In this document: in pieces, positions 25,601 to 51,338 of the stretch
How positions within the stretch are numbered: position 1 is the first letter of the stretch
Layout of the letters: every line of letters begins with the position of its first letter
NCBI RefSeq assembly: GCF_004324835.1
Contig: NW_021163026.1
Span: forward strand, 2,163,271-2,227,270
DNA from: Dendronephthya gigantea
Lineage: Eukaryota
Direction of reading: 5' to 3'
DNA length: 64,000 bases
Position numbers and translations under genes: made by a program
Notes under the pieces: model-generated
What the model saw: the letters and a program-made list of their open reading frames with translations, nothing else
Database searches by the model: none
Told to the model about the DNA's origin: nothing

Positions 25601-27110
25601 GGCAGTCTTCAATCTGATATGACCCGCCAAGGAGTGAGTACGGTCAAGAAAGGCACATGTGCGGCATGTAATAAGCCAATCATTGGCCAAGTTTGTACGG
25701 CTCTCGGCAAGACGTGGCATCCGGAGCATTTCACATGTGTTGCATGTGAGTTGCCCCTGGGCTCAAGAAATTTTTTCGAAAGAGAAGGCAAGCCATTCTG
25801 TGAGAAAGATTACCATGAATTGTATGCTCCAAGGTGTGCTTACTGTAATGGCCCCATTCTTGATGTAAGTAGACAAGCCTTTGTTCATTTTTTTAACCAA
25901 ATTGTGTTGCCTTTACTGTGTTTGAAGTATAGAAAAAACGTCTCAATCCAAGGACATTTATTGAGAGAGACAACTGTAATTAACACCTTTATGAACTTGT
26001 ACATTTTTTAAAGTTCTGCTATTTTATACTCATATTGTTATTATCGCATACTATATCACTACATAGAAATGTTTGTGAACTTTGACTCATAATTAATAAT
26101 TATAAATTAATAGATGATGTACATATTGGTTAACCTATCAGTTGATGAAAAAAAACTTGAACATTTTATTTTTAGTCATGTGTAACTGCTCTGGACAAAA
26201 CCTGGCATCAAGAGCATTTCTTCTGCCATCAATGTGGCAAACCCTTCGGAGATTCTGGCTTCCACGAGCGAGATGGCAAGCCTTTCTGCAGAGATGATTA
26301 CTTTGCTGCATTTGCTCCCAAATGTGGTGGCTGTGAGCAGCCCATCATGGATAATTATATTGCTGCTCTTGGCCAGCATTGGCACCCAGAGTGTTTCGTC
26401 TGCTATGTGAGTATATTCTTGTTTATAAAACTCTGTATGATTTAATGTGTACATTGAATTGTTCCAGTAAGGGCCAGTAAGGATCATCTCTTATTGATCC
26501 AGTGTTACTACAGGAGCAAACCTAAACTAAACTAACTTTATTTATACTGGATAACTCTATCAGTTCCAAAATGTTCTTCCTCGAGGTCCTTGATCCAGTG
26601 TTACTACAGGAGGAAACCTAAACTAAACTAACTTTATTTATACTGGATAACTCTATCAGTTCCAAAATGTTCTTCCTTGAGGTCCAGTAAGGATCATCTC
26701 TTATTCATTATTAATACTAGCTATTTTTATCAGATCTAAACTATAATACTAATAATATTATAATAAATGTCTTCTTCCTAATCTTATTGATGCGTTTAGT
26801 GGGTGGCATAATATGAATTACAAAAACATTTTGTTATTTCTAGGAATGCCATCAGCCGTTCCCAGGTGGCAGTTTCTTTGAGCACGAAGGAAAGCCTTAC
26901 TGCGAGATGCATTACCACTCAAAGCGTGGTACATTATGTTACAATTGCCAGAAACCTATCACGGGTCGCTGCATCACCGCAATGCATCGTAAGTTCCATC
27001 CAGAACATTTCATCTGCGCCTTCTGTCTGAAGCAGTTGAACAAGGGCACGTTTAAGGAACAAAATGATAAACCTTATTGTCATACTTGCTTCGTGAAACT
27101 CTTTGGTTGA
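22595..27110 (+). CDS. PXN: Paxillin-family focal adhesion adaptor (LD motifs and four C-terminal LIM domains), 7 coding exons
   Basis: Exons: 22595-22607 (ATG GAC GAT TTA G|GTGAGG), 23485-23676, 24614-24688, 25132-25389, 25560-25864, 26176-26406, 26844-27110. They total 1341 nt, or 446 aa. The spliced N-terminus is MDDL|DALLADLQ, the LD1 motif. Further LD motifs are [36 protein letters not shown] and [13 protein letters not shown]. The LIM domains begin [30 protein letters not shown]..., [19 protein letters not shown]..., [27 protein letters not shown]... and [30 protein letters not shown]... Confidence 0.88.
26466..26710. repeat. Two units of the same 117-bp repeat family in a paxillin intron
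   Basis: The same unit sequence as at 15757-16350, with minor substitutions. Confidence 0.9.
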
Positions 27111-31501: not shown

Positions 31502-34500
31502 ATGGCGGAAGCTGTAGGTATGTTTCGTAAACTTTGTTTGCTAAACTGTGTCAAAAAAAGGTGCGACTTTAAATAACACTAATGTGGCTTCTAGCCAATA
31601 TTAAACACTGTGTTTATGAGAAATGCAACGAATATAAGTGTTCTGCATTTTGATAAGTTTTAGTAAACGGTTTCCATATATAATTCGCATACTTGTTATG
31701 CTTGGATACCCCAGTCGCAATTAGTTTTGCATATTCATGAATCATGGCAACTCTTTGTGTCAATATAAAGAGGACTTGTGACCGCCAAAGTCTTCTCGTT
31801 TTATGCATGCATAATTCATAGTTATCTTAAAATAGTATCTTCTTCAAAAACACGGGTTAGTTGCTGCTCAGTCAAATGTAAAGAAATTGCATGGATTAAA
31901 GGGGTAAGGTTGGTGTTAGGATTAGTAGAGGGATTAGACTTACGTTTGAATCAAAGAATTAAGATTTCAAGGATTTATTTTTCAGTTAAATCCAAGTTTG
32001 GTCAGAGAGAACCCCCACTTACAAATCAGATTGTGAGCATATTGAATCGTTATCCTGATGGAGGGCAAATATTGAAGGTAATCAGCATTACCATTATTCA
32101 AGCAATCATTTAGCAGATTGAACATTCTTGTTTTCGAGAACCAGTTTACAATATTGACATGCACAAACAATTATTTTACCATGCTCTTAGGAATTGATTC
32201 AAAATGCTGATGACGCTGAAGCAAAGGAGGTTAAATTTCTATACGATGGCAGACAATTTGGTGTAAATAATCTTACTAGTAAACATCTGAAGGACTTCCA
32301 GGGACCTGCGCTTTATGCATTTAATGATGCAAAATTCAAAGAGAGCGATTGGGATGGGATACAAAATCTCATGAAGAGTAATAAAAAGGAAGATATTCTC
32401 AAAGTAGGAAGATTTGGTATTGGGTTCAACTCAGTGTATCACATCACAGGTTTGTGCAGATCATGAATTTAATTTGGTTGTTTGTTTGCACGTATTTTTT
32501 GCCTGCAATAAAGATATTAAGATAGTTCTAGTTTTGGAAGGACTGAAGTTGAGCAAAGATTCTAGCATGCATCTTTAGTCCTGATATTCATTTTTGCTAT
32601 CAATAACAAGCAGCTTATTGAGCTAGCTCCTGCATGTATAAAGAATATCAACATCTGCATTTGTCTTAAAATGATGCAAACAAACAAATGTGTTATTACT
32701 ACATTTAGTATTTCTTTTAAACTTTGATGGTAGTAATAGAATTGAATCACCTTGAATGCAACTTGTTAGATCTGCCAGGAATCGCAAGTGGGAAAAAAAT
32801 TGGATTTTTGGATCCACATAAACGATGTTTTGAAAAGGGGGAACCTGGAGTACAATATGAGGTTGATTCAAAATTACTGCGACAGGAACATCTTCTTCGA
32901 GATCAATTTGAGCCGTTCAAAGGAGTGTTTGGTTTTGATTTTTGCGAAGAATATCCCCATACTCTCTTTCGCTTTCCATTGCGAAAATGTCCGTCTGAAC
33001 TCTCACAGACAGAGTACACAAAGGAAAAAGTCGAGAAGCTTTTCAATTCGTTGCGCGAAGAAGCTCCAATCATTTTGTTGTTCATGAAACACATCCAACA
33101 CATCAGCGTTTATGAACGTTTGGATGAAAATGACACGGTCAAATGTCTCTTCGAAGTTGAGATTGCTCGTGAAACACGCGAAGTTGTTCAACAGGAAAGG
33201 CAGAAGATGTTTGAAAAAGCTAAACAAGCTCTTAGTCTTACAGTTACGGAGTCAAGCTGTGTCGTTGACATTTCTTTATCTTCTATGAATGGCTCGGGCC
33301 ACACGGATGAGTGTTTTAGATGGCTTGTAATCAACCAGATTGGCTTAGCTGAAAAAGATGAAAAGGTTGAAGAGCTTTCGAAGACTTTAAGTTTGCTTCC
33401 GTGGATTGGCTGTGCTGTTCCGCTTAACGAGAATGCCCAAAAGGAAGACAGCGGTCGGATTTTTTGTTCTTTACCACTTCCTCATGATGTCGACTGCAAG
33501 ACAGGCCTGCCAGTTTTGGTGCATGGTGCATTCGGAGTCACAGACAACAGACGGGGACTTCTGTGGCCCGGAAATGAATGTCAAAATAACGAAACTGCCG
33601 AGTGGAACGTGCTGTTGGTGAAGAAAATCCTGTCCTCCGTTTTCCGCAAAGTTTTAAAAGCAATAATTACAGATCATCCTGCCACTGGTCTGCACGACGT
33701 GGAGAGACGTGATCTTGTCTATAACACTTTGCCGAAATTAAGCAATGTTATTGGTCACTGGAAGGATGTACTGGATCCTCTATTTCATGAACTTAAGCAT
33801 CTCAACCTCTTTTTTACTCAATCATGCGGTCCTTCATCTTGGGTGACTCTGCAGGAAGGACTTCTTGATCAAATGAAAAAGGATGGCGTGTCTGATGAGA
33901 CGAGGGGAATTGTCCTCAAAACACTGTTACAGAATCATTCTATTATAACAGAACTTCCTGAGCATGTGAGCGAGATTGTTGAAAAATATTTCGGTGCTGA
34001 GAAACAAGATATTACTCCGGAAATTCTGAGAAATTTACTCCTGAGAACAAACTCGCTACAGACGGCATCCCGTAATGATAAACTCCGGTTACTGGAATAC
34101 GTGTTACATGATAACCCACAACCCCAAATGCTCACAGGAATCCCTCTTCTTCCTCTGTCATCTGGAGAATTCAAAAACTTCACTCACCATTCAAATCCTT
34201 CACAGTTGGTATTTGTGCCCAGCGACAACTGTAGCGAAGATTTACTTCCAAATATGCAAAACCATTTCCTAGACATGAATATTCCTGCAGAAACCCGTAA
34301 AAAGCTTGTTGAAATGGCGGCCTTGGATGAACCCACTGCAACACAAATGGTTTTACTCAGCCCAGATCTTGTCGTGTCATACTTACGACGCTGTCTTCCC
34401 GAAGAATGGTTCAATCCCAACCAAAATTTTGTTTCCTGGAAACATGATCATCCTAAACATCCACCAAAGAAATGGATCACAGATATTTGGCATTGGATCA

Positions 34501-37500
34501 ATGAAATCTTTGAAGAATCTCTTGAGAAGTTCGAAGGAATCCCGCTGATACCGTTTGAAATCGAATCGGAGGCTAAACTTGGCGTGCTTTCAAAAACCTC
34601 CAAGTTCATATTCAGTTCAGATGCTTCTCAGAATGTGCAATTGCCTCAGCAGATTGTGAAAGTTCTCCAAGCGTCAGGCTGCGTTGTCCTACCCTGTCAA
34701 CCGACATCCCCCCACGTGCGTCACCCCGATATCTGCTCTTACATTGCGTCTCCCGTCCCGACGGAAGTGATCCAGAAGCTCCTCAGCTCTTCGTGGAATT
34801 CTGCCAAAGAGTACATCGTGAATTGCCCAAGAAACGAATGGAAAACGATCCAAAATTTTTTTGCATCGGTGCAGATGTCGGAGGATCTTCGTGAATCGTA
34901 TGTTAACGCATTACGTGATCTGCCGTTGCTGGAGACACTTGGTGGAAAATACACAACCGCTGTTGTCGACGGTAGGAACCTTTGGGTTGCTTCGCCAGAC
35001 TTCAAACTTCCAGATGGTTTCGACTTTCGCAAAGCGGACCACATCATCTCATCTGCTGAATCTGAATCCGCTCAACTGGTTGGTTTGTTAAAATTAGTTC
35101 CTTGCAAGCCTGTAGATATTTTTTGCCATTTTCTGTTCCCGGACATTGAGACCCAGTCGATTTACAACCGCGAAGAAACAACTAAGGTCATGTTATGGCT
35201 TCTGGAAAGAATCTGCGATTTTAAGGATGATTATTTCCACGACAAAATGAAGAACTTATCGTTTGTAAGCACGCGAAATGGGGAACTTAGAAAGCCAAGT
35301 CAAATCTATAACCCAAATGATCCTCTTCTAAGGGATTTGTTCATTGGTGATGACTCGAAGTTTCCGTCGAAGGAATTTAGTGAACCGCGTGTGATAGGAA
35401 CGCTGACTGATTATGGGCTTCGAACACCAGACATGATAACTCCATCGGATCTCCCTGGAGCAGTTGAGACGGTCGCATCTTTAAAATACGAAGATTCCTT
35501 GAGCAAGGTGAAAGCGTTGATAGAAGTTTTACAACAGAATCCAAAGTTCTTACAAAAATCGATGTGACAACAAAGCTTGCTGGAATAGCGTGGCTTCCTC
35601 GCGCCAAGAAACACAAGAAAGGCTTCCCTTCGTTCATGCACAAGGAATGGTACAACACTGACATTATGTTTTATAAATCAGATGAAATATTTCGCGAGTC
35701 CCGCATGCTTCTCGTTGGAACTTCTGCTCCGATTCTTGGCGTTGACATTGAGAAAAGTCTTCAAGATGCATTGTGTATTAACAAAGAGGTAAATCTCGAT
35801 CAAGTGATCAAACATCTCAAAACATGTGTTCGCGTCTGGGATGAGAAAAAGAAATCAACTTCGCAATATATTGAAATGCTCAAAGAAATCTACGTGTATC
35901 TTTCGAAAAGGCCTTCACAAGAAGACGTCTCCCGTATTATTCTGCAACATTTTGCAGAATATGGAGAAAAATGGATATGGCACGGTGCGGGTTTCTGCGC
36001 ACCCGAACAACTCGCCCTGGAGAAAGATTTACCCTTTGAATTTCGACCTCCGCTTTTTCTGCTGCCCGAGGCTCTAAATGATGGGAAATCGCTGACGATT
36101 TTTTTTCGAAACCACGGGGTTCGTGAACAGTTTTCCAAAGAAGACATTATTTCCGTCTTGGTCGCCATTAAGAAGACATACGAGGAGACTGTACGTCCTA
36201 TTTCGCTGAAGGAGCAGGAAAAAGATTTAAAGTTTTGTCGTTCCGTTCTCGAGTGGTTGGTAAGTGATGGACAGAAGTTGGACGAAGATCTCAGAAGGAA
36301 GATATTTGTTCCAGTGCAAAAAGACAAGAAGTTAGTCTTAGAGGAATGTGAAAAAGGCACGTATTGCGATCAAGAATGGTTGAAACATGGAAAAAGTGAA
36401 CTTGATATTCCTGATGATATTCAACTGATCCACGATTCCATTACGACTAAAACAGCAATTCTGCTTGGAGTACCTTCACTAAGCTCCTGTCTGCTGTCGG
36501 CTGAGTGCGTTGAGTTTGAACAAACCGGACCCTACGAGCCGATCACAACAAGAATCAAGAATATTCTGAAAGAGTATAAAGAAGGTGTTGGTATTTTCAA
36601 AGAGCTTATTCAGAATGCGGATGACGCAGGCGCGGATACGGTCAAATTTTTGGTGGACTGGAGAACAGGGAAGATTGGCAGCTTATTCTCGCCTGATATG
36701 GCCCCAAGCCAAGGGCCTGCACTCTGGGCGTACAACAATGCTGTGTTCACTGATAAAGATTTTGAGAATATCAACAAGCTAGCTGGAGGAACGAAAGTGG
36801 AAGATCTTTCGAAGATTGGTCGTTTTGGGCTGGGTTTCAACGCTGTTTACCATCTTACTGACGTACCGAGTTTTATCAGTCGAAGCATCTTGTGTATTTT
36901 TGACCCAAATGTCAACCACATCTCAAACCACATTCGCGACAAGTCCCGTCCAGGAATCCGAATAGATCTTGCCAAGAACCCAAGGCCGTTGACAGCGTTC
37001 GCCGACCAGTTTTCCCTCTATAACGAAATCTTTGAATGCAAGACAACTCTGGATGATAAAGAGAAGTTCTCGTACCAAGGCACCTTATTCCGCTTTCCTT
37101 TTCGCACTGCGACTGAGGCAGAGAAGAGCGAGATGTGTCAGACTGTTTACAATCAAGTCGAAGTGAAAAGAATTGTAGATACTTTGCAGCGCAATGCATC
37201 CCTCATTCTTCTTTTTACACAAAATGTTAAGCGCGTTGAACTGTACGAACTTGCTGCTGAAGACTGCCCGCAAAACATGAAACTTATACTTTCTATCAAT
37301 AAAGAAGTACTTTCTACTAATAAAGAAATTTCCACCATTCCGGAGGTTGTGCAGGTATCTCCATACATTAAACGATGCTCCAACTGGTGGAATGAAAAGC
37401 AATCGTTGAGTGAAGCACCGTGGTGTTTGGAGCAGGTTGAAATCCGGATTGATAAGGAAGACCCAACCACAAATGAAACTGGAGCGTGCGACGTAAAGAC

Positions 37501-40500
37501 TTCTTCCTGGTTTGTGTCTTATTGTGTTGGAAAGGATCTTTCGATCAAACTTGCCAGGGAAGAAGGTGAAAAAGATGGTCTCTTGCCTCTCGCCGGTGCT
37601 GCTGCTCTCCTTCAAAGCAATTCAAATGATGATGCGATGATCGCTAAACAAGTTAATGGTGAAGCATTTTGCTTCTTGCCACTGTCCATTTCCACCGGAC
37701 TACCCGTCCATGTAAACAGTTCCTTTGCTGTTCGTTCGAATCGCGATGGAATCTGGGAAAAGACCACGGCTGAGGAAAACTTGGAATCTCGCTGGAACGA
37801 AACTCTTTTACAAGATGCGATACCCGAGGCATATTTCCAACTACTCCACGGAATGGTGAATTTATCGAAGAATAATTCCTTAACACAATTCGATCAGCGT
37901 TTCCATGATTTCTGGCCGCGTCTTGCCACGTCAAAAACGTCGTGGACCGCTCTCGTATCGAGTTTTTATACAAAGTTATTAGCACAAAATTTGAAGCTGT
38001 TTTGCAGCACTGGAAAGTGGATGGACATTAACGATGGTTTTATCTTAGACGATGAGTTGCGAAGTCATGATCACGACAGAGTCGTGAGAACGCTGAAATT
38101 TATCGAAATACACGTTTTTGATCTTCCATCAGATGTCGTTACCGCAATGAAAGACTCCGCTAGTGATTCTGTCCAAAATGTTCTTCAGAAGCAGACGTTG
38201 AACTTTGTATCATTCTTTGAGCTCCACTTGTTCCCTAAGTTAGAAGTAATCCCGGCTGATTTACGCAATCCCATTGTCCATGATGGGCTACGCTATCTCC
38301 TGGACGAGACAAAGCAAGGCTATCAGAAACTGAATAGTTTATACAAGAAAACCAAATGTATTCCGTGTTCTCCCGATGGTGAAAAGTTAGCTCGACCGTG
38401 CGATTTGATCAACCCGAATGACGAAAGTATTTCTAGGTTATACTCGCCCGAAGAAGGCAGGTTTCCTCATGGAAATCTCGATAATACACAAATGTTTGTA
38501 TTGGCCGAAAAACTTGGGATGGTTAAAGATCTTTTAAGTTGGGAAGAAATTCGTGGACGTGCGATGTCTATTGAGAAGCTAGCAGAGACGAACAAGGAAG
38601 CAGCTCTGCTACGCTCAAGGTATCTTGTCTATTATCTACGATGTAATATGGAGAGACTTAAACAGATGACAGATATTTCGCTTTGTCCTTCTCTTCAGAA
38701 AATAAATTTTTTACCGGTGCGTCTCACTGCCACAGAATCGTACACTTTGCCATGGAAAGGGGAGTCTTGTTCCACGCAGTTTCTGAGTCCTGGTGAACTG
38801 TTTTTGCCAGAAGATGATACCCTCATCGGCTCAGCCAGCTTGATCGTCGACGACACCGAAGAAAGCGGGTGTGGTTCACTGGAAGTTTTAAAGAGCGTTC
38901 TTGGTTTTTCTCGTCGCCCGAGCTGTCAACAAGTGTTTGAACAGTTGGATATTACCAGGAAATCACATGCGACCGACGAAATGAAAAATAGAGTGTGCAA
39001 ACGTGTTTACAAACATCTAAATGATGAGCTGGACGAGAATTCAGACGTAACTGAAAAACTTCAGAATTCTCCGTGGCTTTACCTTGAAGGAACTTTCGTA
39101 GAAAACAAGAAGATTGCAATGAGCTGGAATGGGTACGCCGTGCCTTTTCTGTACAGTGTTCCAGACAGAGACAAACAAGAGTATAAAAAACTCCTCAAAC
39201 TGGCAGGAATTAAGGAGTGCTTCACAGCCACCGATTTCATCGAAGCTCTAGATTTGCTCAGGGAATCCATGCAGGATACCCCTTTGTCACCAGAACATAT
39301 ACAACTTGTTGTGACGTTGATCAGGGAGCTAAGAGATCCAAGCGAGGCGGTTAGAAGACGTTTTGGTACAATACCATTACCTGACACAAGCGGTGTGTTA
39401 TACGACAGCAAAGATCTAACCATCCCAGAAAGTTTTGCAGTGAAATACAACAACAAAGGCGAGCTTTTCATTCATCAAGAGATAGTCCAAAACACTGCTC
39501 GCAAGCTTGGAGCAAAAGCCTTGCGTGCAAGACGAAGGGAGAAGTATGGTAACACAATGTCTATATCTTTTGGGCAATTTGAGAAACTAACGGATCGTAT
39601 AAAGAACATCTTAGAATCATACCCTTGTGATGCTGGAATCTTAAAGGAACTCGTTCAAAATGCAGACGATGCGAAGGCCACCGAAATTCAGTTCATCTAC
39701 GACAAACGAAAACTTCCTCACGAGCGAGTTCTTCAAAATCAAGCGAGCGAAATCCAAGGACCTGCGTTATGTGTTTACAATAACAAACAATTCAGCGAAG
39801 ATGATTTTAATGGAATCTGCAAACTTGGAATCGGGAGCAAACACGATGACCCTGCTAAAACTGGACAGTATGGAATTGGATTCAATGCCGTGTATCACTT
39901 AACGGACTGTCCTAGCTTTTTGTCCAACGATAGCACTCTTTGTATCCTTGATCCTCACTGTGAATACGCTCCTGAAGCTACTTTGGATGCACCTGGAGGA
40001 CGTTATGACAACATTGATAACGATTTTAGAGATATCTTCTCTGACACTGTAAGTGGTTATCTTAAGAATCTCGATCGTTTTCCTCTGAAAAATTCCACCA
40101 TGTTTCGACTTCCACTGCGAACAAGCGAACAAGCAGCTAAGTCTGAAGTATCGAGGATTGTTGCTACCGAAGAAATCATGACTTTACTAAAGAAATTTGA
40201 AGAAGAAGCGAAGAAATTGTTGCTTTTTCTCAATCATGTTAAGGAGATTGGTTTGTGGGAAATCGATGAGAATTCTGAGTTAAAACTCACATACTCGGTG
40301 AGTTCTAAACTTAAACCAAAAAGTGAGAAGAAATTACATGAGCTGCATGGTCACTTGCAAGACCACAAGAATTTAAAAACTCATGAGATTCTTATAAAGG
40401 ACACTACGTATAGCATCCATATTCAGGACACAGAGAGACTCCAGGAAAAATGGCTCATTCATCAAATTTTTGGCATCAGAGAAGAAGCAATGAGCGATGA

Positions 40501-43500
40501 ACAAACTCCAAACGTCTGTGATCTTGGCCTGTTCCCTCGTGGTGGAATTGCAGCGCTATTGTCGACGACGAATCGTCCAGATTTGGAAAAATATGTCGCG
40601 TACTGTTTTTTGCCTTTGCCTGTAACAACTTCGCTGCCCGTTCACGTCAATGGTCATTTTGCACTCGATGGATCACGACGAGATTTGTGGTGGGACCAGA
40701 GCAAGACTTGTCGGAAAACGAACTGGAATGGGTTCATGAAGGAACAAGTGCTTGGCCCTGCTTATGCATCATTGATCACGAAAATCAGAAAACATATTCC
40801 CTATTGTGAAAGAGAGTCAGAGAAGATCTTCTTCTCAAACGAAGACGAAGCAATAAAAGCCTTGGTTTGGTATCACAAATTATTTCCAGATCCTGAAAAA
40901 GATCCCGACTGGAATACTCTTGCCGTGGCTGTTTATAAGAGCTTAAAAGAGGCGCAAATTTTTCCAGTGGTCTCTCAATCACGTGGTGTTAACACAGCGA
41001 AGAAGCATCAATCTGATGAATGTGGGTCAGAGAAATCTTCTGGCACCAGAGAGGGTAGACGTGAAAATTCAGTTTTAATTGGTGGCCGTTATCGCAACGT
41101 GTCTAGCAAGCACGCTCCTCGCTTGTCACGGCATCGCGAAAAGGGAAGAAGATACAATTCGAAGAATGTGAAGATGGCAAGGTACGCTTTTGTTGCACAA
41201 AAACGATGTGAAATAGTGACAAAGTTTTCTATCGAGTGGCTGCCTCCAAACCTTGTCTACTTCACTGAAGAAAAAAAGCGAATCGAACAACAGGCTCTGT
41301 TGTTAACCGCACTCTTAGAGATCCGTATGCCAGTGTTATTATATACTCCAATGAGAATCTACAAAGCATTGAAGAAGTCTGAGGTTACAACCAATCTCCT
41401 TTCTCCGGAAAATGTCATCGATTTCATGTTGAAGTCGCAAGATGAAAGCTCCAGGTGTGTCATTGGAAAACTTCCTATCCAACTGGGGCAATCAAACATT
41501 CAAAACGAGTCTAATTTACGAAGTATTTTTCAATATTGCAAGTCGAAACTTGAGGAATTACCTTCAAATCTCGAAGGGCTGCCACTTCTGTTGACGGCTG
41601 ATAATATGTTGAGAGCGTTTACTGCGAACAGTCCCGTGTATTGTACAGAATTTATCGATTTGTTTCCTGACAAAGCTTCTAGGTTCGTTCATCTTCAATT
41701 TGTTCCGCTATTGTTATCATTTTGTGAAGTTGATGAAGCCGAACTTGGTATTATCCGTCATCTCACCATCACGTCGTTAGCTGAAGAATTTATGCCGGAC
41801 GTCTTCCGTGACAAATTACCGTTGGGTGAGACAAAACATGTCCCATGGAGCTACCCAGAAAATGGCGTCCTCTCAAAGGAATGGTTCAGAATTTTATGGA
41901 AGTTCTTGAAAACTGTCGAACGATCGGAAAGAGAAGATACTATTCCACTCCTTGGTAAATATCCGATTATACCAACCAAAGATGGCAAGCTAGCAACGGT
42001 TGATAACTCCAAATCTGTGTTGGCAATGACTATATTCAAGACGAAGTCTTTGAATTCACTCCAGAGGCCGGTTGCAAAAATTCTGGAAGACCTATCATGT
42101 CCGTTTTTAGATGAATCCATTACAGAATATGGTTTGCCTGTTGTCCTTCCATTAGTCGCTCACCCAGACAGCGAATCAGATGTACTTCATGTTCTCGACT
42201 ATATGAATTCGACTGGAATACTCGACTTGAGCAAATTTGACGACGAAAAAATTTTCACTCTTTTGAAATTTTTTCAGGCTGATTGCGGAAACGAGACGTC
42301 TATGGGAAAAGCTAAAACATTACCGTTCTACAAAGGCGTTGATGGCAATTATTATTCGCTGTTGTTGCATTCCTCATACATTAAAATTCCAGCTCGCTTA
42401 CCAGAAGATGGCATAAGAGAACTACAAAGTATTTATGGAACGAGAGTGTTGCTGTTTCCCTCATCACTACCGTCAGAGTTGAATCAATTGTTCGCGGCTC
42501 TTGGGATTGAGGTGAACTGCCGTGTTTCTGAGTTTTACATCAAATACGTGTTGCCAAATTTTTCATTATTATCTCGTGAATGCCAAATAAAATTTTTAAC
42601 TTGCATCAGAGGAACGCTGCGCTTCGATTTGATCGAAGAATTGAAATGGACAAGATGTATTCCTGACCAAACTGGAAACCTTTGCTTTGCTTCCAGATAT
42701 CTCAATCCACACAACGAATTATTTCAAGCGATGTTTAAGACTGATGCAGACGTTTTTCCAGCATCACCGTTCAATGAAATGAAGTGGCTCGAATTCCTTC
42801 TCCAAATAGGAATGAAGGAAAAATGTGACCAGGAACAGTTCATTGAATTTGCAAATAACGTGGAGCAGTCTGCACAGAAATTGACCGAATACGATGAAAA
42901 CATTATAGCTCAGTCCAAAGCACTCGTCAAGTACCTACTAGGAAATGAACGCGATGGGACCTGGTCATTCTACGGTATTCCTGAAATAAAGTTTATCGTC
43001 CCTAAGGAAATCGAAGAAGAGCTCTCTTCTATTCATCCCCAGCATCGTGCAGATGGAATTCTGGAATTTGTTTCATATCGTGATTCAGTGCCGTGGGACC
43101 TTAGACACCTAATTTGGACAAGTTATAAACTTCTACCAGATTGGGCTTTTCCTCGTCATAATGAGAGTCTTATTTCAGCGTTAGGAATAACTTCAGAGCC
43201 ACCTCTTAATGCTGTGTTTCAGCACATAGAAACCATGTCCAATTGTGCTTCGAAGATAATCGTGTCGGGTAGTACTTTGTCGGAAAAGCTTAAGGAAGTG
43301 TTTAAAACAACCTACGAATTCCTGGTGAACCTGATGAAACACTGCGCCAAAGAACCTTCCTCAGACTGTAACGAGAAGTGTCAGAAGATTGGAGAGTGTT
43401 TAAAATCTGTTGCTTGTATTCTGCTCAACGAAGAACGATGTTTGGTGAGAGGTGAAAAACTTTCAATTGAAGACACAAAAGACAAATTGAAACCGCATTT

Positions 43501-46446
43501 TTATAAAATACCACGCGACTATGCTCCGTTTGATCATCTCCTGAAAAGACTTGGCGCTACGGAGAAGATCTCCGCTTCACAAATGGCCAGTGTTCTCAAG
43601 TCTATCAAAGATTCTTCCACAGATGAAAAGATGAATTCTGAAGAAGAGGAAAAGGCGTGCTTTGCTACTTCTGTTTTGTTCAAATCACTCCTTGACGATA
43701 AAGAGACCGAAGCTGATTCAAGACTGGCAAATTGCGAGGAGCTTCTTTTGCCAAGCATGGCTAAACGACTCATAAGCTCCGACAAGTTGGTTTGTAAAAT
43801 GCAGCCCCGACTCCGCGAGTCAGTAGCGAAGCAAGGCTACGAGATTTTGATGCCTTTTGAAAAATGCGGAATGAAACGTGAGTTGGAAAACGACTATCTT
43901 CAAGCTCTTCCTAATCGTCTCCGGCCAACGCCGTTAAGCGAACTGGTACGCGAAGAGTTACATCCGCTGTGTAAGAAGGACATGAGTTGTACTTTATGCC
44001 TGGCGATGGATTACCATTCGTTTATCCAGAAGGTTCATTTTACTTTTGCGATCCTCGCAATTTGAGCGCGGTATCATACGGCTCTTGAAGCACCAGAAGG
44101 AATTGACAGAGCTTGATGAAAAAGACAGAGAAAGAGCCGCACGATTTACTTCAGCTAAGGTTAGTCGTCATGTTTTTCGAATTTTCTAATTCAAAAGTTC
44201 AGACACAAACCACGACAGCTTATTGTAGAATACTACCTACACTGGACCACCACGTTTGAGATCTCTTTCTCAGGTAGTTCAGACACAAACCACGACAGCT
44301 TATTGTAGAATACTACCTACACTAGACCACCACGTTTGAGATACCTTTTTCATGTAGTTCAGACACAAACCACGACAGCTTATTGTAGAATACTACCTAC
44401 ACTGGGCCACCACGTTTGAGATATCTTTCTCAGGTAGTTCAGACACAAACCACGACAGCTTATTGTAGAATACTACCTACACTGGGCCACCACGTTTGAG
44501 ATATCTTTCTCAGGTAGTTCAGACACAAACCACGACAGCTTATTGTAGAATACTACCTACACTCGACCACCACGTTTGAGATATCTTTTTCAGGTAGTTA
44601 AGACACAAACCACGACAGCTTATTGTAGAATACTACCTACACTGGACCACCACGTTTGAGATATCTTTTTCAGGTAGTTCAGAAACAAACCACGACAGCT
44701 TTTGTGGAATAAATAACACTTCTTTTCTTTGCATAAGTCTCTCTATTTCTATATTAAAGCTGACTACGATCAAATGTATGCAACAAGTTCAAATCCACCT
44801 TGTTAACGTATTGAAGGAAGAACCATTGCCAGGAAGCTCAGTCGACAGATCGTGTCATGTAGAAAAGGAAGAGAATTCCTGGACACTGTATATTCAACAC
44901 GAATTTGGAGGCAGAAAGAACCACGCCATCTTCGCGAAAGCTGTAAATGAAATCATGGACAGATGTTTAGAACAAACTGCCGAGTTAAGCGATATGCTCT
45001 CTTGCGACTCGCCTTCCCAGATACCAGGAGTACTTAACGACCATGACGTTGCGATTGATTATAACGAAGAAAATGAACAGTTTGGTCTTCCTGTGCCGGA
45101 TGTTTACCACTATCTCATTATTCAAAAACCACTCTGTAATTACGAGGAAGGAGCTCGGGTTGCCTATGACGAGGACGAAGGTAATAAAATATGAAATATC
45201 CAGTTAATAGTTTGAAAATCACTTATGTAAACACTGCATCTATTGTAATTTTTAAGATGTTTGTTAGTTTGTATCGCTTGAAGAAAGTGTGTAAGGTGGT
45301 GTTCCTCAGTTCTGAAGCCTTTCCCAATCTTTTAATGGTGGGTGAATATTATTTACAACCGAAATATTTACTAAGCACTTTTCTCTTTTGGTTTTTCCAC
45401 CAGGTTGCGCTGGAAATTGGAAAGAAAGCGAGCTAAAGGAGACATCGATTAGATACAAGTTCGTAAAGATCAACAGTCGTGCCAATGCTATTGACAAAGA
45501 TGCCAATGAATTCGACTTCAAAGCTCGGTACAAAATTGATCTCGGCAGCAAAACTGACTATAAAATAGTGAGTGTCCTTGATCTTTATAGTTACAAACAG
45601 AACGAGATGGGAAGTCTCGTTCCAGACGATGAAGATGACGAAAAAGTAAAAGTGGATGTTTTGGTAGAAAAATCTAAAATCACTCGGGCACTTAAACTTG
45701 CCAAGAACAACTTGGACTCATTAACACAGCGAGAAAAGGTGATAAGGCGTCTTTTCCTACATTGGCTTCGTTGTAAGGACTCTGAAACTGCAGATGAGAT
45801 AACCAAATTCATAGAAAATGAAGTCACAAGGCTGAAGATTCTGTGTCTGGAAGAAACGCGAGCCTTTTCAAGTTACTGGAGAAGTTATGGCAAACGTGAG
45901 AGGACGACATATAGAAGCTACAATCGTTGGACGTCGGTATGCGACAGTCCTGGCGGTTACCATGACAGCGGCAGTAATCGCGGTTACCATGACAGCGGCA
46001 GTCATGGTGGTCATTATGATCCTTGGGATTACGTAAGCCCCGATGCAAAGGAAGCAGAACGATGGATCAAGCAATCGCAAGCAGATTTGAATGTCGCCAC
46101 GTGGTTGCTCGACAAATCCTTTTCACAAGTATGTTATATGAGCCAGCAATGTGTGGAGAAAGTTTTGAAAGGTGTTCTGTACGCCAAGTGTGGAATACCA
46201 CGAGTGGAATTACGTACCCACCATATATACCGGCTTGTAAATGTATGCCGTGGCCTCGACGAAGCCCCAAGCGAAGCCCTGGATCGAGCTAGTAGCGTTG
46301 GAGGTTACTACCTTCCAACACGTTATCCTGACAATCAACCGCAGTATCGAGTTCCCGCTGAAGAATACACCGAGGAACAAGCCAAGCAAGCGTTAGATGT
46401 TGCTGTAACAATTTTTGCAGTTCTTGAAAAATTTGCCTTCAACTAA
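31502..46446 (+). CDS. SACS: Sacsin-like giant gene with three HATPase-like repeats, a degenerate J domain and a C-terminal HEPN domain (gene span; two internal frame discontinuities)
   Basis: Exons: 31502-31517 (MAEAV-), 31986-32077 ([31 protein letters not shown]), 32191-32449 ([16 protein letters not shown]...[14 protein letters not shown]-), a giant exon 32770-44065, then 44760-45180 and 45404-46446. Three repeat cores of the sacsin repeating-region type are present: [28 protein letters not shown] (32191-), [31 protein letters not shown] (about 36600), and [31 protein letters not shown] (about 39650). Each is followed by a ...FRFPLR... segment. The total is about 4400 aa, comparable to vertebrate sacsin. 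Confidence 0.8.
32770..44065 (+). CDS. SACS: Sacsin-like giant coding exon (about 11.3 kb), read as two ORFs split by an apparent 1-nt frame discontinuity at 35550-35567
   Basis: The acceptor gttag|ATCTGCC joins YHIT to [17 protein letters not shown] (sacsin has [21 protein letters not shown]). Frame 0 runs open from 32770 to the TGA at 35565-35567. Frame 2 runs open from 35468 to 44065 and contains HATPase-like repeats 2 and 3. The two frames overlap only across 35468-35567. The true 3' end of this exon is uncertain; see the findings. Confidence 0.75.
44198..44700. repeat. Tandem repeat of about 80 bp and roughly 6.5 units, immediately downstream of the sacsin giant ORF
   Basis: The unit is gttcagacacaaaccacgacagcttattgtagaatactacctacactggaccaccacgtttgagatatctttctcaggta. 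Confidence 0.9.
45404..46446 (+). CDS. SACS: Sacsin-like C-terminal exon with a J-domain-like region lacking HPD and a HEPN domain
   Basis: The acceptor ccaccag|GTTGCGC is in phase with the donor GACGAAG|GTAATA at 45180. It reads ...[25 protein letters not shown]... (vertebrate sacsin has [21 protein letters not shown]). It continues with [36 protein letters not shown], where the J-domain position has LRCKD in place of HPDKN. The C-terminus reads [20 protein letters not shown]...[14 protein letters not shown]...[14 protein letters not shown], a HEPN fold with the TRYPD signature of sacsin's C-terminus. Confidence 0.8.
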
Positions 46447-47392: not shown

Positions 47393-48556
47393 ATGTCGAT
47401 TCGTCTTTACGATTCAAAACTCGAAGAAGATGGATTGCGCACTTATGTATTTATCGTCGAGAAATTTTCTTCAATTGGTTCCGAAATCTACTCAAAACCT
47501 TTTCACTTCGCTGGTCATCGTTGGAAAATCCAGGCTGGGATTAAAGAAAAGCACTTTGGAGCGTTTTTACGCTGGTTGAGCGGTGGGGAACACAGTAAGG
47601 GTGTGAAATGCAAGGTGAACTTCACGTTGGGCGTTTTAAACAAGGGGGAGATTTCAAAGTCAATTCGTCGCGGGAATATGACAGATAAGCCCGACGAATT
47701 TACAAAATCAGGATGTGGTATTGGCTGGGGAAAGTTGGCCTCTCTTGAAGATCTCGAGAGTGATCGTAATTTCATAACAGACGATACGATCTTGGTTGAA
47801 CTGCATTGTCGTTTAGACGAGACGACATTTGAGAACAGGTTACCGTGCGCGGCGAAAGCTGGGGATAAGTTCATAAAGAGCTCAATGTTTTCATTCTGCA
47901 ATAGTCGTTGGTCCATTATCATGTTTCCTAATGGACCGCCAAGTAAGAATGACGTCCCGCCTCAAAACGACAACGTCGCTGTTTATCTGCATTGCGAAGA
48001 CGTCGGATTGCTTCGTTACAAGGTCGGCTTCTCGTTTCACGCTCGTAGCAGGCTCGCAAAGCAACGGCAAATCACGTATAACTTTTTCGATACTTCTCAC
48101 GATACGTCTTGCAACGCTTTTGGTATCGAGCAATTTATGCCTTCAAAGGAACTCAAAAGAATCGCAAAGAATGGAAAGGTTAAGATCAAAGTCAAAATCA
48201 AATTCATGGAACCATACTTCTATCTTGCGCTTGATCCAGCGAACTTGAAGAACACAGAGGGAAAGATGTGTACACGTGAGGACTTGGTGGATCAATGTAA
48301 TAACCCTCTTGCCTTGACCCTCGAAACGTCCCGAGACGAGAAGCTCGTTTTCAAATTGAAATATGATCCGCAATTTGAGAACGAGGCTCTGGATGAGATG
48401 CCGTATTTTAAGAAGATTTTTTGGCGAGCTGTTCTCAACTCGTTCGAGGATGATTCCGAAACGGTCGTCGTGTCGTCGTCGTCGGAAGCCGGGAAGAGTT
48501 CGTTTTGTTACAGCGAAGCCGAGTGCTCGATTGCATCCAGTTTAGATATCAGAAAG
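47393..48556 (+). CDS. First exon of the MATH-OAS gene, encoding tandem MATH/TRAF-like domains (388 codons)
   Basis: The ORF is 394 aa, with an in-frame donor AAG|GTGGGA at 48557. Two repeated beta-sandwich-like segments each carry the F-x-W-x-I core motifs typical of MATH domains. Confidence 0.75.
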
Positions 48557-51338
48557 GTGGGAACCATTATTATCTAGTGACATTGATTGAGTGAGTGTTG
48601 ACGAGAATCTGAAAGCAAGAGTTTCCATTTTTGATAAATTCTTCAGCTCTCGTGACCTAGTCAAAGGAAGACAAGAATTGCCAGAGAGTTGAATTAATAG
48701 CACGTAAAAAATGCTATTAGCTATCAACTTTTATCAAAATTTCACTATTTCGAAAGTCAAAAAGCTTGAGAAGCACTATCATTGACTCATATAAACTTTC
48801 TTTCTTTGTCTGCTGGCTTGCCTTTTCTTTTCTAATGATCAGCGTTTCTTGAATAAACTTTTATTACATTTCCTCCACAGATTGAAGAACGAGGTAGTGT
48901 GTTCCTGGACGAAGAAGATATGCTGAGTGTTCATGTTTTTATCGACGATGCAAATCTTGTTTATGATCCATTGCTTGATCCTCTCACGAAACAGAGCGTC
49001 TCAAAGTTGAGGGAAGAGAAAGACCAAAGATTGAGGAATTTGGAACGAGAATGGTAAGGTATCACTTGGTCTATAAACCTGTTTTTATACAAGAACTTCA
49101 GTATTGATGAAATCTGAACTAAACAAACGCTTATACGTTCTATACCTCTAACAATTCTTTCTAATGCATGTAGGAAGCTTCTCTTACAAATTTAATGAAT
49201 ACTCTCATGAATCAAACTAAGTTGACCGAGCATTCTTTTGTGTGTTCCGGTTAGATTTGAAAGGATTTATATAATTTTAAAACAGTGAAAGTTTCATCGA
49301 AAACACAATGGCGGAGAAAGATGTGATCATATCAGAACAGGAGGAGCTTTTGGAAGAACGCGATTGTATTATCAGTAAACAAGAGGGACATATCGCTGGC
49401 TTGAAAACAGAAATGGAAGACAACGATAAATATTTGAGTGAACTTGTTGACGGTAAAGATGAGGTAAGAGTTTGGACTTGAGAGGCAAGTTCTTTCGACC
49501 TTCTTCAATAAGTATAGTAGATAACAGAACTTGGTTCAATTCTAGTCGTTAAAAAAGGCTTAAACTACAACGAAGTAATATCTTCTGATTATAGACTGAC
49601 CACTTTTTTGTTTTATCATTGTGAAGGGTGAAGCGAGCAAACTCCTCAAACGTAGTCTTCGACAATTGATCAAAAATGCGAAACCGTCAAAAGACGAAAT
49701 AAAAGCACAGAAAACGGTCGAGAAGAAACTCAGCAAATTCCTGAAGGTTTGTCAACAAATAGATCAATAGTTCCGTTAATAGAGTAGTTTTGAATACAAG
49801 CTGGTCTGATGACAAATATGTTTTAGAAAAAGCTACCATTTAACATCAGTCGTGTGTCAGCTGTGGGTTCTTATGGACAGAAAACCACGTTAAAAGGATT
49901 GAGAGAGTGTGGTCTTGCCATTGCTATTCAAGGTAAGATTTGTCAGGAAGAAACGAGTCATTTTGAAGTGTAAAACCTCCATTTTTGGTTCCCTACGGGA
50001 ATAGTTTAGTACAAATGTTATTGAGGATTCAAAGTTAGTTCAGTCTTCTCTTTTACCCAGATCTTCCTCGCACAGAACATGATAGCTGGCTACCAACGAT
50101 CGTGGGCACCATTAAGACATTACTCAATCAACGTGATAAAAGCGACAGCACGATACCACCATGTTCTGAGTTCAACACCACATCATCGACCGTCAATTTC
50201 AGATGTGCTGACGTCGATGTTGAACTCACACCAATCAATGACTGGGAAAATAATGGTGGCTTCCAGGCCCTTTATCAAATGAGCCTGAAACAGAGCGCTG
50301 ACGTGCAAGTTCAGTGAGTATTGGGAACGATATTAAGTATCTCAATATAAACCTGAAGTGATACCGTTTTATACTTTTGCGTGTAAGTGTTAGTGTGAAA
50401 AGAATTATTTTTTTTATCATCTTTTACAGTTACAACAACAACGTATGTGAACTTCAAGCAGCATTTATCGCCAATCAACCTGAGAAGGTAAATCAGTTGT
50501 TCTCCAATGATGTCTGTGGACAAAGCGTTAAATTAAACACTTTATTTTCCTCGTTCATTCCAGTGTAAAGATTTGATACGAGTTGTGAAGAAGTGGAGCC
50601 GTGATATTGAATGGGATCCTGGGACCAAACCAAGCGACTATCTTCTGTCATTACTCGTTGTTCAAGCCTACGAGATCGTGCAACCGTAAGTAGGAAAGAA
50701 TAAAATTCCAAAGGCAATGGGGCTCGGAACCGCGCGCCTGCTAATAGAGTCCGGGAAAATTTTGAAATATAGGTCTCTGAAATCGCCGCAAATGCCTCTC
50801 AATTTAAGGATTAATAGAAAATAATAGAAGTATGTAAAGTTTTCAGCATGTTTGGCGCTCATATACAAATATTAAACAATATAACCTTGCTTTGGTTATA
50901 ATGTCAAATATTTTGACATCGATAACCACGCTGTTTTAATGGTCAGAACCATTGGAAGACACTTGAACCATTCTTTCTTGTACTGATAGAGACATGGTCG
51001 AGCAGTCGTCGGCAGATCTCGACGTGTTGTTGGAGATGGCTGATATAGTAAATGACAGTAACCTCGAGTGAGTATGTAGCGGACGGAACGAATACGAACT
51101 GTCAATTAAACTTGTCAATCCATTATCTTCCTAATTTTGGTTTACATTTAGATTATCCTGGGACACGGACAACTACATCTCTGCGCAGTATCCGCGGCAG
51201 TTCTTCCCCAAACCCTTCACACAACCTATCGTCCAGGACCCCGCTATCCCCACCCACAACGTGGCCGAGTCAGGCATGGAGGATTGGAAAGAATTTCGAA
51301 AAAGGTTCAAGGAATGGGTTATCTCATTGACTCCTTGA
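47393..51338 (+). CDS. Novel-architecture gene fusing two MATH/TRAF-like domains to an OAS-like (2'-5'-oligoadenylate synthetase family) nucleotidyltransferase, 10 coding exons
   Basis: Exons: 47393-48556, 48881-49053, 49286-49463, 49627-49746, 49827-49932, 50061-50313, 50430-50487, 50564-50685, 50990-51067, 51152-51338. Phases are continuous and total 2439 nt, or 812 aa plus a stop. All donors are GT(A/G)AGT-like, including two CA|GTGAGT and GA|GTGAGT sites that the ORF track reads as stops. MATH-like segments are LRTYVFIVEKFSSIGSEIYSKPFHFAGHRWKIQAG...FGAFLRW...GIGWGKLASLEDLE...DDTILVELHC and SSMFSFCNSRWSIIMFPNG...NVAVYLHCED... OAS-like segments are VGSYGQKTTLKGLRECGLAIAIQ (the NTase GS motif), CKDLIRVVKKWSRDIEWDPGTKPSDYLLSLLVVQAYE (OAS1 has LIRLVKHWYQ...PPQYALELLTVYAWE), and LSWDTDNYISAQYPRQFFPKPFTQPIVQDPAIPTHNVAESGMEDWKEFRKRFKEW (OAS1 has IYWTKYYDF..PIIEKYLRRQLTKPRPVILDPAEPTGDV...W..L..EA). 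Confidence 0.75.
49827..49932 (+). CDS. MATH-OAS gene exon 5, carrying the nucleotidyltransferase GS motif
   Basis: It reads KKLPFNISRVSAVGSYGQKTTLKGLRECGLAIAIQ-G. Aligned to the OAS1 motif [22 protein letters not shown], the [DE]h[DE]h positions read E-C-G, so the second metal-binding acidic residue appears to be replaced by Gly. Confidence 0.65.

Follow-up and report, generated by a model that had tools for sequence, protein, structure and literature searches.

In a 64,000-nt stretch of DNA from Dendronephthya gigantea (hereafter the window), we found a sacsin-like gene on the forward strand at positions 31502-46446, which comprises six coding exons including a giant exon of 11.4 kb. With considerable confidence, we regard it as a sacsin-family gene encoding a protein of about 4406 aa, as one of at least three paralogues in D. 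gigantea and as a member of an octocoral-specific branch that lacks the HPD motif of J domains. Parts of this are known already: NCBI calls the locus 'sacsin-like', and the architecture of cnidarian sacsin-like genes, with Hsp90-like, J and HEPN domains and no ubiquitin-like domain (UBL), has been published (PMC8626496, bioRxiv 10.1101/867754, PMC3710099). The gene leaves the understanding of the family unchanged and is best seen as ordinary, with one modest peculiarity.

The six-exon model, its splicing and its expression are predicted from the genomic sequence. After two 1-nt frameshift corrections, the coding sequence spans 13,221 nt with one terminal stop and yields 4406 aa, in agreement with the roughly 4400 aa of the original prediction. 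Every intron is of the GT-AG type with compatible phases, as read from the sequence. A paralogue from another species in L004 has the same ATGGCGGAAGCT start and a phase-1 GTACGT donor upstream of exon 2, and the exon 2 region shares 63-74% identity with the N-termini of Acropora and Actinia models (tblastn). The N-terminus, with about 13 residues before the first sacsin repeat (SRR1), resembles these models, which are likewise devoid of a UBL. The giant exon is colinear with unbroken ORFs of about 3800 aa in the homologues P0045-P0061 and ends at the donor AAG/GTTAGT (44159/60). Exon 5 follows with the acceptor AAAG/CTG (phase 0) and the donor G/GTAATA (phase 1), and exon 6 with the acceptor CCAG/GT and a stop codon that ends at 46446. 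The relative L007 shares the exon 6 splice sites, and exons 4 and 5 are uninterrupted in the single-ORF homologues P0071, P0075 and P0090. That the exon starting at 45404 belongs to the same gene, as first proposed, is borne out by fitting splice sites and phases and by the single-ORF homologues P0071 and P0075, which span the junctions. The other features of the original prediction were likewise found at the positions given there. An Rfam scan of the whole window gave no hits.

Table 1 Features of the sacsin-like locus and its neighbours in the window.
Feature	Position	Strand	Details
Coding exon 1	31502..31517	+	ATG GCG GAA GCT GTA G, then GTATGT donor; M-A-E-A-V, phase 1
Coding exon 2	31986..32077	+	Start of SRR1; AG acceptor 31984-85, GT donor 32078-79
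SRR1 SACS domain	32009..33176	+	aa ~14-258, crosses introns 2 and 3; Pfam
Coding exon 3	32191..32449	+	SRR1 N-box ELIQNADDA and G-box; Pfam SACS E 4.8e-35, splice sites, tblastn
Giant coding exon 4	32770..44159	+	11,390 nt; remainder of SIRPT1, followed by SIRPT2 and SIRPT3
Frameshift 1	35554..35567	+	Frame 0 to frame 2, A5 run 35554-35558; one missing A restores frame
SRR2 SACS domain	36530..37264	+	aa ~1377-1621; N-box 36602-36634, G-box 36818-36862
SRR3 SACS domain	39572..40303 (approximate)	+	N-box ELVQNADDA 39647-39679, G-box 39863-39907
Frameshift 2	44021..44033	+	Frame 2 to frame 0 at TTTATCCAGAAGG, ATCC about 44026; removing one C restores frame
Intron 4 tandem repeat	44196..44711		80 nt x 6.5; TRF score 934, 95% matches
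Coding exon 5	44760..45180	+	Ends AYDEDE-G; linker from SIRPT3 to J-like segment
Coding exon 6	45404..46446	+	Small beta region and J-like helices, then low-complexity linker and HEPN; stop
J-like segment	45676..45867	+	aa 4151-4214; L-R-C at HPD position, 45766-45774
HEPN domain	46054..46428	+	aa ~4277-4401; TRYPDNQ 46318-46338, conserved LRTHHIY 46210-46230
MATH-domain gene	47393..48577	+	Single exon; Pfam MATH_2 E 5e-26; between sacsin-like and OAS-like genes
OAS-like gene	about 49600..51335 (approximate)	+	Multi-exon, downstream; Pfam OAS1_C E 8.8e-9 on concatenated exons

A giant exon had been expected from the first inspection of the locus and does exist, but as assembled it is not a single open frame: two 1-nt frameshifts interrupt it and leave the ORFs 32724-35567 and 35564-44065. 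The public protein model P0044 ('sacsin-like [Dendronephthya gigantea]', 2809 aa) is 100% identical to the larger of the two and represents a truncated version, consisting of the longest ORF only. Because of the two frame breaks, it falls short by about 1600 residues: the first ATPase repeat is lost, and so are HEPN and the J-like segment. Counts or comparisons of coral sacsin genes that build on such annotations will mislead. Searches for exact matches to the products of the window returned nothing. As an alternative to frameshifts, tiny introns at the breaks were considered and rejected, since the GT..AG candidates span 29-31 nt, which is too short, and homologues are continuous there.

Are the two breaks features of the genome or of its assembly? 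Both shift the frame by +/-1 nt within a short run of a single base (A5 and CC), and such runs are typical sites of long-read errors. The assembly is based on PacBio/FALCON with Illumina correction and shows high heterozygosity; four comparable assembly indels have been reported for the sacsin-like gene of Acropora millepora. In assembly L001 the orthologous giant ORF is intact, in L005 it is shattered, and the region of frameshift 2, once corrected, aligns to homologues free of gaps. Illumina correction should have removed many indels, which speaks for real frameshifts and hence for a recently inactivated pseudogene of which the fragments alone are translatable, as in the 2809-aa NCBI model. 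Two frame breaks in one exon fit this reading, as does a public model confined to the longest ORF, truncated rather than corrected; the family evolves fast and duplicates, copies may be lost, and in L002 and L007 related copies are followed by short SACS fragments. Against inactivation, after the two 1-nt corrections no other stop or indel is left in 13.2 kb, the splice sites are all intact, and the 947-aa part before frameshift 1 is conserved nearly to the same degree as the remainder (60% vs 65% identity to P0046). In comparison with L007 (85% identical), we obtained an overall dN/dS of 0.185 (dS 0.41) for the region of exons 5 and 6, with values of 0.086 for exon 5, 0.21 for the J-like segment and 0.27 for HEPN; the closest available homologue of the giant exon is 65-69% identical in protein, a distance at which saturation of synonymous sites is to be expected. 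The exons carrying the J-like segment and HEPN are under purifying selection (dN/dS 0.19) and are not decaying, and a ratio of this size permits neutral evolution over a few percent of the branch at most. If the frameshifts are real, inactivation is very recent. By our estimate, residual long-read assembly indels are favoured over true inactivation, and we consider the pseudogene possible but doubtful.

In the corrected protein, the HATPase-like and HEPN domains named in the original prediction were recovered by a domain search as three matches to Pfam SACS (PF25794) and a match to HEPN (PF05168). All three repeats begin with an Hsp90-like (GHKL) domain. The match in SRR1 is split into 32194-32466 (E 4.8e-35) and a part from 32724 onwards (E 3.1e-21), and the ORF 35564-44065 contains two further SACS stretches (E 5e-163). 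SRR2 is the best Pfam stretch (aa 325-569 of this ORF) and matches the PDB structure 5v44 of human sacsin SRR1 with an E value of 3.8e-45; the SRR3 region gives a weak HATPase_c_3 match (aa 1359-1442 of the same ORF). The N-boxes are located at aa 37, 1401 and 2416, in parallel to the spacing of human SIRPT1-3 at 84, 1444 and 2512. Read from the translation, all three repeats carry an N-box of the form E-L-[IV]-Q-N-A-D-D-A and a G-box of the form G-x-[FY]-G-x-G-F-N. The three motif repeats described at first are present (ELIQNADDA, ELIQNADDA, ELVQNADDA), except that the third G-box reads GxYG instead of GxFG. Residues of human sacsin equivalent to those that bind ATP are listed in PMC9880540 (Glu116 etc.); with the ATP-binding Glu, Asn and Asp and the glycines characteristic of GHKL domains present in all three modules, we infer that the modules are competent. 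They would probably still be able to bind ATP and hydrolyse it, which has also been proposed for the human protein.

The J-like segment aligns with the J domain of mouse sacsin, 1iur (phmmer, E 4e-4), with LRC placed under HPD, which confirms that the tripeptide is missing from the DnaJ-homologous region. Pfam DnaJ did not match, even at E<=1. An AF2 model of the segment (pLDDT 84) displays four helices (8-25, 29-46, 49-65 and 71-102) and retrieved no J domain from PDB with Foldseek (best E 0.59), while the model of the whole of exon 6 (pLDDT 78.5) matched HEPN structures alone. The homology to J domains is therefore a reading of sequence and not of fold. 'Degenerate', the term initially chosen for this domain, is an overstatement, since the dN/dS of 0.21 against a close relative indicates constraint instead of decay. 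In J-domain proteins, HPD is indispensable for the stimulation of Hsp70. Pam16/Tim16 are J-like proteins that lack HPD, in which the J-homologous helical segment is retained under selection; the window gene differs from this class in that HPD was lost inside the sacsin family. With HPD lost, the J-like segment would be unable to stimulate the Hsp70 ATPase, and the paralogue would then work independently of Hsp70 recruitment or use the segment for another contact.

Whether the gene is 'the' sacsin ortholog, as stated in the original prediction, depends on its relatives. Direct 1:1 orthology with vertebrate SACS, together with a role as Hsp70 co-chaperone through a divergent J domain, would account for the colinear architecture and the repeat spacing shared with human sacsin, and sacsin itself is the best PDB relative of the SRR and J segments. 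Like vertebrate sacsin (the ARSACS protein; human 4579 aa), the coral gene has a giant exon and three long-short-long repeats with an Hsp90-like GHKL start, in which the N-box E-L-x-Q-N-A-D-D-A and the G-box are conserved, followed by a J-homologous segment and a C-terminal HEPN with TRYP but without the His of Rx4-6H. Vertebrate sacsin differs in its N-terminal UBL, a further vertebrate fusion (PMC3710099), for which we found no counterpart at the coral N-terminus. The coral gene also has LRC in place of HPD, occurs in multiple copies and shows by sequence no XPCB, the domain that vertebrate-type sacsin has between srX and sr3 of its third repeat: PF09280 did not match, and aa 3354-4060 found nothing among PDB sequences at E<=10. 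In the part that links the third repeat to the J-like segment, Pfam and PDB sequence searches detected no other domains either.

At least three sacsin-like proteins of D. gigantea are encoded on different scaffolds (P0044, P0090 and P0156). P0090 retains HPD (RRLYLRWHPDKNP) and P0156 is devoid of any J-like segment. HPD was found in 38 homologues among those matched by a motif search and, in a separate check, in 6/6 named hexacoral models examined; the octocoral clade that holds P0090 also retains it. By contrast, every member of the octocoral clade of the window gene is devoid of HPD, which is replaced by [L/F][R/W/Q][C/Y/R], and at least one related assembly carries tandem copies of this branch (outside the window). 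The phylogenetic placement recommended at the outset took the form of a neighbour-joining tree without bootstrap, rooted on vertebrate fragments of 211-217 aa that cover HEPN and the upstream linker (the human HEPN query had retrieved vertebrate fragments of 94-217 aa), and it puts the window gene in a derived octocoral clade. Judged from these sequences, the window gene is a co-ortholog on the HPD-less octocoral branch, and a 1:1 relationship is quite unlikely, given a second locus with HPD, six of six hexacoral models with HPD against a clade wholly without it, and the missing UBL and XPCB.

The hexacoral sacsin-like genes (Acropora millepora/palmata, Actinia, Stylophora; PMC8626496, bioRxiv 10.1101/867754) share the UBL-less architecture with the short N-terminus MA..FGQR.PPLT.. 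and consist of few exons, one of them giant, with 34-39% aa identity over the giant-ORF query. They carry WHPDKN and mostly RYPxxH in HEPN, of which the window gene has neither. P0090 ('LOW QUALITY PROTEIN: sacsin-like') and its octocoral clade (P0068, P0075, P0079-P0087) show 40-47% aa identity and an HEPN with RYPNQQ, again without the His. Located on a different scaffold from the window gene and with the canonical RRLYLRWHPDKNPDN kept, P0090 appears to be the likelier of the two to act as a conventional Hsp70 co-chaperone. Heat-stress and selection studies repeatedly refer to coral 'sacsin' as a co-chaperone of Hsp70. In octocorals, paralogues predicted to be unable to stimulate Hsp70, from the absence of HPD or of the J segment, exist beside one that could; functions should thus not be transferred wholesale. 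The subfamily amounts to a natural experiment, a sacsin without a working J domain, and bears on the mechanism of the human disease protein.

The C-terminal HEPN with TRYPD, already recognised in the first reading, is matched by Pfam (PF05168, E 1.3e-17 in ORF 45388-46446) and TRYPD is seen in the translation. The domain corresponds to 1wol, 1ufb and the sacsin HEPN structure 3o10 both by sequence and, using the AF2 model, by Foldseek (TMt 0.66-0.75, prob 1.00). The best matches are prokaryotic HEPN-T proteins of MNT-HEPN toxin-antitoxin systems (PF05168; 1wol, 1ufb), with E 2e-12 in sequence and TMt 0.73-0.75 in fold, and the motifs WxxQA, QQxxEKxxK, xH and TRYP are common to both. The coral gene keeps a helix-3 His (THH) that it shares with prokaryotic HEPN-T and that human sacsin has lost. 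In contrast to HEPN-T, the coral domain sits at the C-terminus of a eukaryotic protein of 4406 aa, lacks an MNT partner and has no His of the 1ufb type (RYPDAH). In the motif TRYPDNQPQ, the Arg is kept and no His is found at +5 to +7, as in human sacsin (RYPDLLPF), and hexacoral copies read RYPDKH or RYPHFH. The catalytic motif Rx4-6H is defined in PMC3710099, with which the His-less state is consistent. RNase activity, hinted at in the original prediction, is not expected, because the His of Rx4-6H is missing as in the human protein. With the fold and the TRYP arginine kept and the catalytic His lost, HEPN would most likely serve to dimerise and to bind nucleotides or RNA, the role it has in human sacsin, and not to cleave RNA. 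ATPase competence, lost Hsp70 stimulation and a non-catalytic HEPN are thus predicted properties, derived from motifs.

Why should a coral keep sacsin genes without HPD? The HPD-less genes may form a fast-evolving octocoral subfamily with tandem copies, freed from co-chaperoning Hsp70, that acts, together with its conserved MATH/TRAF-like and OAS-like neighbours, in innate antiviral or stress defence, the giant ATPase serving as sensor or scaffold and HEPN as RNA-binding part; we put this forward as a speculation and consider it rather unlikely. The MATH gene occupies the same relative position in L001, L003, L004 and L005 with 76-82% aa identity. The OAS-like gene matches OAS2 and OAS1 in PDB (E 4e-7 to 8e-7), and its exons share 67-86% identity with those in L001, L003 and L005, where the order sacsin-like, MATH, OAS-like is kept. 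The OAS-like neighbour may be inactive, as its NTase strand reads LKGLRECGL where OAS has SDxDL.

A more specific proposal would couple the sacsin-like protein to these neighbours as an innate-immune effector, for instance as an HEPN RNase regulated by 2'-5' oligoadenylate in the manner of RNase L. The conserved gene order would suit such a system, and the sacsin-like gene (60-66% aa identity) is far more diverged than its neighbours (82-86%) and occurs in tandem copies in related assemblies. Oyster sacsin genes form a multigene family induced by poly(I:C) and virus (PMC7064767), and Acropora sacsin is under balancing selection. We nevertheless regard this proposal as very improbable: HEPN has no His of Rx4-6H, the NTase of the OAS-like gene is possibly inactive, L004 is without OAS core exons, and L002 is without both MATH and OAS. 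Pfam found neither an ankyrin nor a 2-5A sensor domain in the sacsin-like protein. The adjacency looks like plain, ordinary synteny, because gene order stays colinear as far as 54.2 kb, across additional unrelated genes; the early caution that proximity to OAS might be coincidental was well placed, with the qualification that the arrangement is conserved, within longer colinear synteny.

A division of the locus into three genes (one for the N-terminal SACS part, one for the annotated protein of 2809 aa and a small one for the J-like segment and HEPN) is hardly credible: the pieces are separate ORFs in the assembly and prokaryote-style callers set SACS and HEPN ORFs apart in related contigs, yet the more distant homologues P0068, P0071 and P0075 (4308-4443 aa) and NCBI hexacoral models have all parts in one protein, the alignment is unbroken across every junction, and L007 has kept the canonical, phase-compatible splice sites. 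The preferred single six-exon gene also includes intron 4 (44160-44759) with its tandem repeat, whose 80-nt unit occurs in the homologous L007 intron as well.

Long open reading frames follow one another on the forward strand between 31.5 and 46.5 kb of the window, and Pfam matched the sacsin domain PF25794 three times in them, the first copy being split and two further copies lying in the 2833-aa frame (E 5e-163). In a search against solved structures, the repeats matched the Hsp90-like domain of human sacsin (5v44, E 3.8e-45) and the last frame matched the HEPN proteins 1wol and 1ufb, the human sacsin HEPN domain 3o10 and the sacsin J domain 1iur. Chance cannot account for matches of this strength. 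The observation of a sacsin gene in the original prediction was confirmed, its interpretation only in part; the motif strings it listed are all found in the translation, the third G-box reading GQYG rather than GxFG. The gene is of a known kind and is already publicly labelled sacsin-like in truncated form: the 2833-aa frame is 100% identical to P0044, a 2809-aa protein named 'sacsin-like [Dendronephthya gigantea]' at NCBI, which identifies the window as octocoral DNA. P0044 spans exactly the first ATG to the stop of this frame. The public model thus comprises the longest open frame only and leaves out SRR1 (the Hsp90-like domain opening the first repeat), the J-like segment and the HEPN domain. 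Our analysis adds a corrected full-length model of a gene that is one of at least three D. gigantea paralogues, a constrained octocoral subfamily defined by HPD loss, and a HEPN domain lacking the catalytic histidine.

Features of the sacsin-like gene and its surroundings (window coordinates)
Feature	Position	Strand	Remarks
Exon 1	31502-31517	+	ATG GCG GAA GCT GTA G, then GTATGT donor
Exon 2	31986-32077	+	
Exon 3	32191-32449	+	
Exon 4	32770-44159	+	giant exon
Exon 5	44760-45180	+	
Exon 6	45404-46446	+	
ORF	32724-35567	+	947 aa
ORF	35564-44065	+	2833 aa
ORF	44778-45194	+	
ORF	45388-46446	+	HEPN PF05168, E 1.3e-17 (Pfam)
First PF25794 copy, split	32194-32466 and start of 947-aa ORF	+	E 4.8e-35 and 3.1e-21 (Pfam)
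Frameshift 1	35554-35558	+	AAAAA run, frame moves -1
Frameshift 2	about 44026	+	TTTATCCAGAAGG, frame moves +1
MATH-domain (TRAF-like) gene	47393-48577	+	single exon, 394 aa, directly downstream of sacsin-like gene
OAS-like gene	~49.6-51.35 kb	+	OAS1_C E 8.8e-9 (Pfam); PDB OAS2, OAS1 E ~4e-7 to 8e-7
eIF3c exons	18479-20244		
LIM-domain exon	25571-26011		
BTB/POZ exon	55751-56419	-	
RRM exon	60690-61058		

Every intron has GT-AG ends, and the phases are compatible. The same MAEA start with a phase-1 donor also precedes a paralogue in another species, and hexacoral NCBI models begin alike, about 15 residues ahead of the first ATPase domain and without a ubiquitin-like domain (UBL). Exon 6 belongs to this gene and not to a separate one, since the more distant homologues P0071, P0075, P0068 and P0090, which hold everything in one ORF, align unbroken over the exon 4/5 and 5/6 junctions. 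Both 3' splice sites are kept in L007, an 85%-identical relative on a Tara metagenome scaffold. Intron 5 (45181-45403, 223 nt) is longer there (about 400 nt) and is missing from the 60%-identical homologue P0002, where a single ORF covers exons 5 and 6 (L001 10001-11443); this distribution is a lineage-specific gain or loss. Much of intron 4 is occupied by 6.5 copies of an 80-nt unit (44196-44711, 95% matches), which also occurs in the homologous intron of L007 (1-95) and, as a partial copy, at about 8675-8715 of the window.

In the D. gigantea assembly, the giant exon is broken into more than one open frame. With one A inserted and one C deleted, the coding sequence measures 13,221 nt, has a single terminal stop (4406 aa) and aligns to homologues undisturbed at either frameshift and gap-free at the second. 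We favour an assembly artefact as the probable cause because homologues P0045-P0061 (ORFs of about 3800 aa) are unbroken at both positions, the assembly is PacBio/FALCON-based and Illumina-corrected for a highly heterozygous genome, the sacsin-like gene of Acropora millepora was reported to contain four assembly indels, and two assemblies of one locus differ: the orthologous giant ORF is intact in ERZ25067548 (L001 1-11443, 3778 aa) and in more than 10 pieces in GCA_949826985.1 (L005 1-11164), a contrast showing that giant exons get shattered depending on assembly quality. That the frameshifts are real and mark a very recent null allele is the less favoured reading, of appreciable probability; any pseudogene phase can have occupied no more than a small share of the branch, a few percent. 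Purifying selection acts on the C-terminal exons, which are coding (exons 5 and 6 against L007: dN/dS 0.185, dS 0.41; exon 5 0.086, J-like segment 0.21, HEPN 0.27).

Constrained in this way, the J-like segment is not decaying, and the description of the J domain as 'degenerate' is not supported. The loss of HPD is: in the phmmer alignment to the sacsin J domain (E 4e-4), LRC stands in its place. Pfam DnaJ gave no match to the segment even at E<=1, and matches hexacoral homologues weakly. WHPDKN is kept in all six named hexacoral sacsin-like proteins examined and in one octocoral clade, to which the D. gigantea paralogue P0090 belongs; in the window gene's clade all members carry [L/F][R/W/Q][C/Y/R/H] instead, and a third D. 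gigantea paralogue, P0156, lacks the segment altogether. An AF2 model predicted four confident helices, with which Foldseek retrieved no J domains. Homology to J domains is therefore suggested by sequence, retention of the J fold being unsupported by Foldseek.

Retention of the HEPN domain was borne out by Pfam, and its fold was confirmed by Foldseek matches to 1wol, 1ufb and 3o10 (TMt 0.66-0.75). The TRYP arginine is kept and followed by DNQPQ; positions +5 to +7 hold no histidine, which is also the case in human sacsin (RYPDLLPF), whereas hexacoral domains read RYPDKH, RYPHFH or RYPNKH and resemble prokaryotic 1ufb (RYPDAH). The pattern fits the account of Anantharaman et al. (PMC3710099), who reported that some animal sacsins keep the motif and the human one does not. 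The D. gigantea gene retains a helix-3 histidine (LRTHH) that it shares with prokaryotic HEPN-T and that human sacsin has lost. Its HEPN domain most likely has a non-catalytic role in binding or dimerisation; RNA binding by the human sacsin HEPN domain was reported in a recent preprint. The overall layout also resembles the human protein: N-boxes at aa 37, 1401 and 2416 compare with human repeat (SIRPT) starts at 84, 1444 and 2512, a common long-short-long pattern offset by the missing UBL, and the human ATP-binding residues (Glu116, Asn, Asp, glycines) are present in all three repeats. XPCB was not detectable by Pfam or PDB sequence search.

An OAS-like gene does lie nearby, beyond the MATH gene, in conserved order. 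The order sacsin-like, MATH, OAS-like recurs in L001, L003 and L005, and colinearity extends past the OAS-like gene through more genes to 54.2 kb; four related loci carry the MATH gene at the equivalent place with 76-82% identity. The OAS core exons are missing from L004, and L002 has neither neighbour. The arrangement is ordinary synteny, a HEPN-OAS link being without support in the evidence here. An immune or stress reading is kept alive by virus-induced oyster sacsins (PMC7064767), balancing selection on Acropora sacsin and faster evolution of the sacsin-like gene (60-66% identity between species) than of its neighbours (82-86%). The OAS-like NTase strand (about 49827-49970, +) reads GSYGQKTTLKGLRECGLAIAI, with LKGLRECGL against SDxDL in OAS enzymes, so that the second catalytic Asp appears replaced; the sole phmmer alignment of this piece is to domain I of OAS2, which is inactive, and the neighbour may be a pseudo-enzyme.

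An Rfam scan of the whole 64-kb window gave no match. A 114/115-nt satellite forms three separate tandem arrays (15806-16353, 26494-26685, 54480-55304) and also occurs in a related octocoral contig (L004 14434-14649). Just downstream of the HEPN exon, L002 (16154-16681, 15120-15773) and L007 (2518-2719) carry short SACS fragments similar to the N-box region of SRR3, in L002 adjoining a reverse-transcriptase ORF. These fragments have the look of gene pieces that were duplicated or retroposed.
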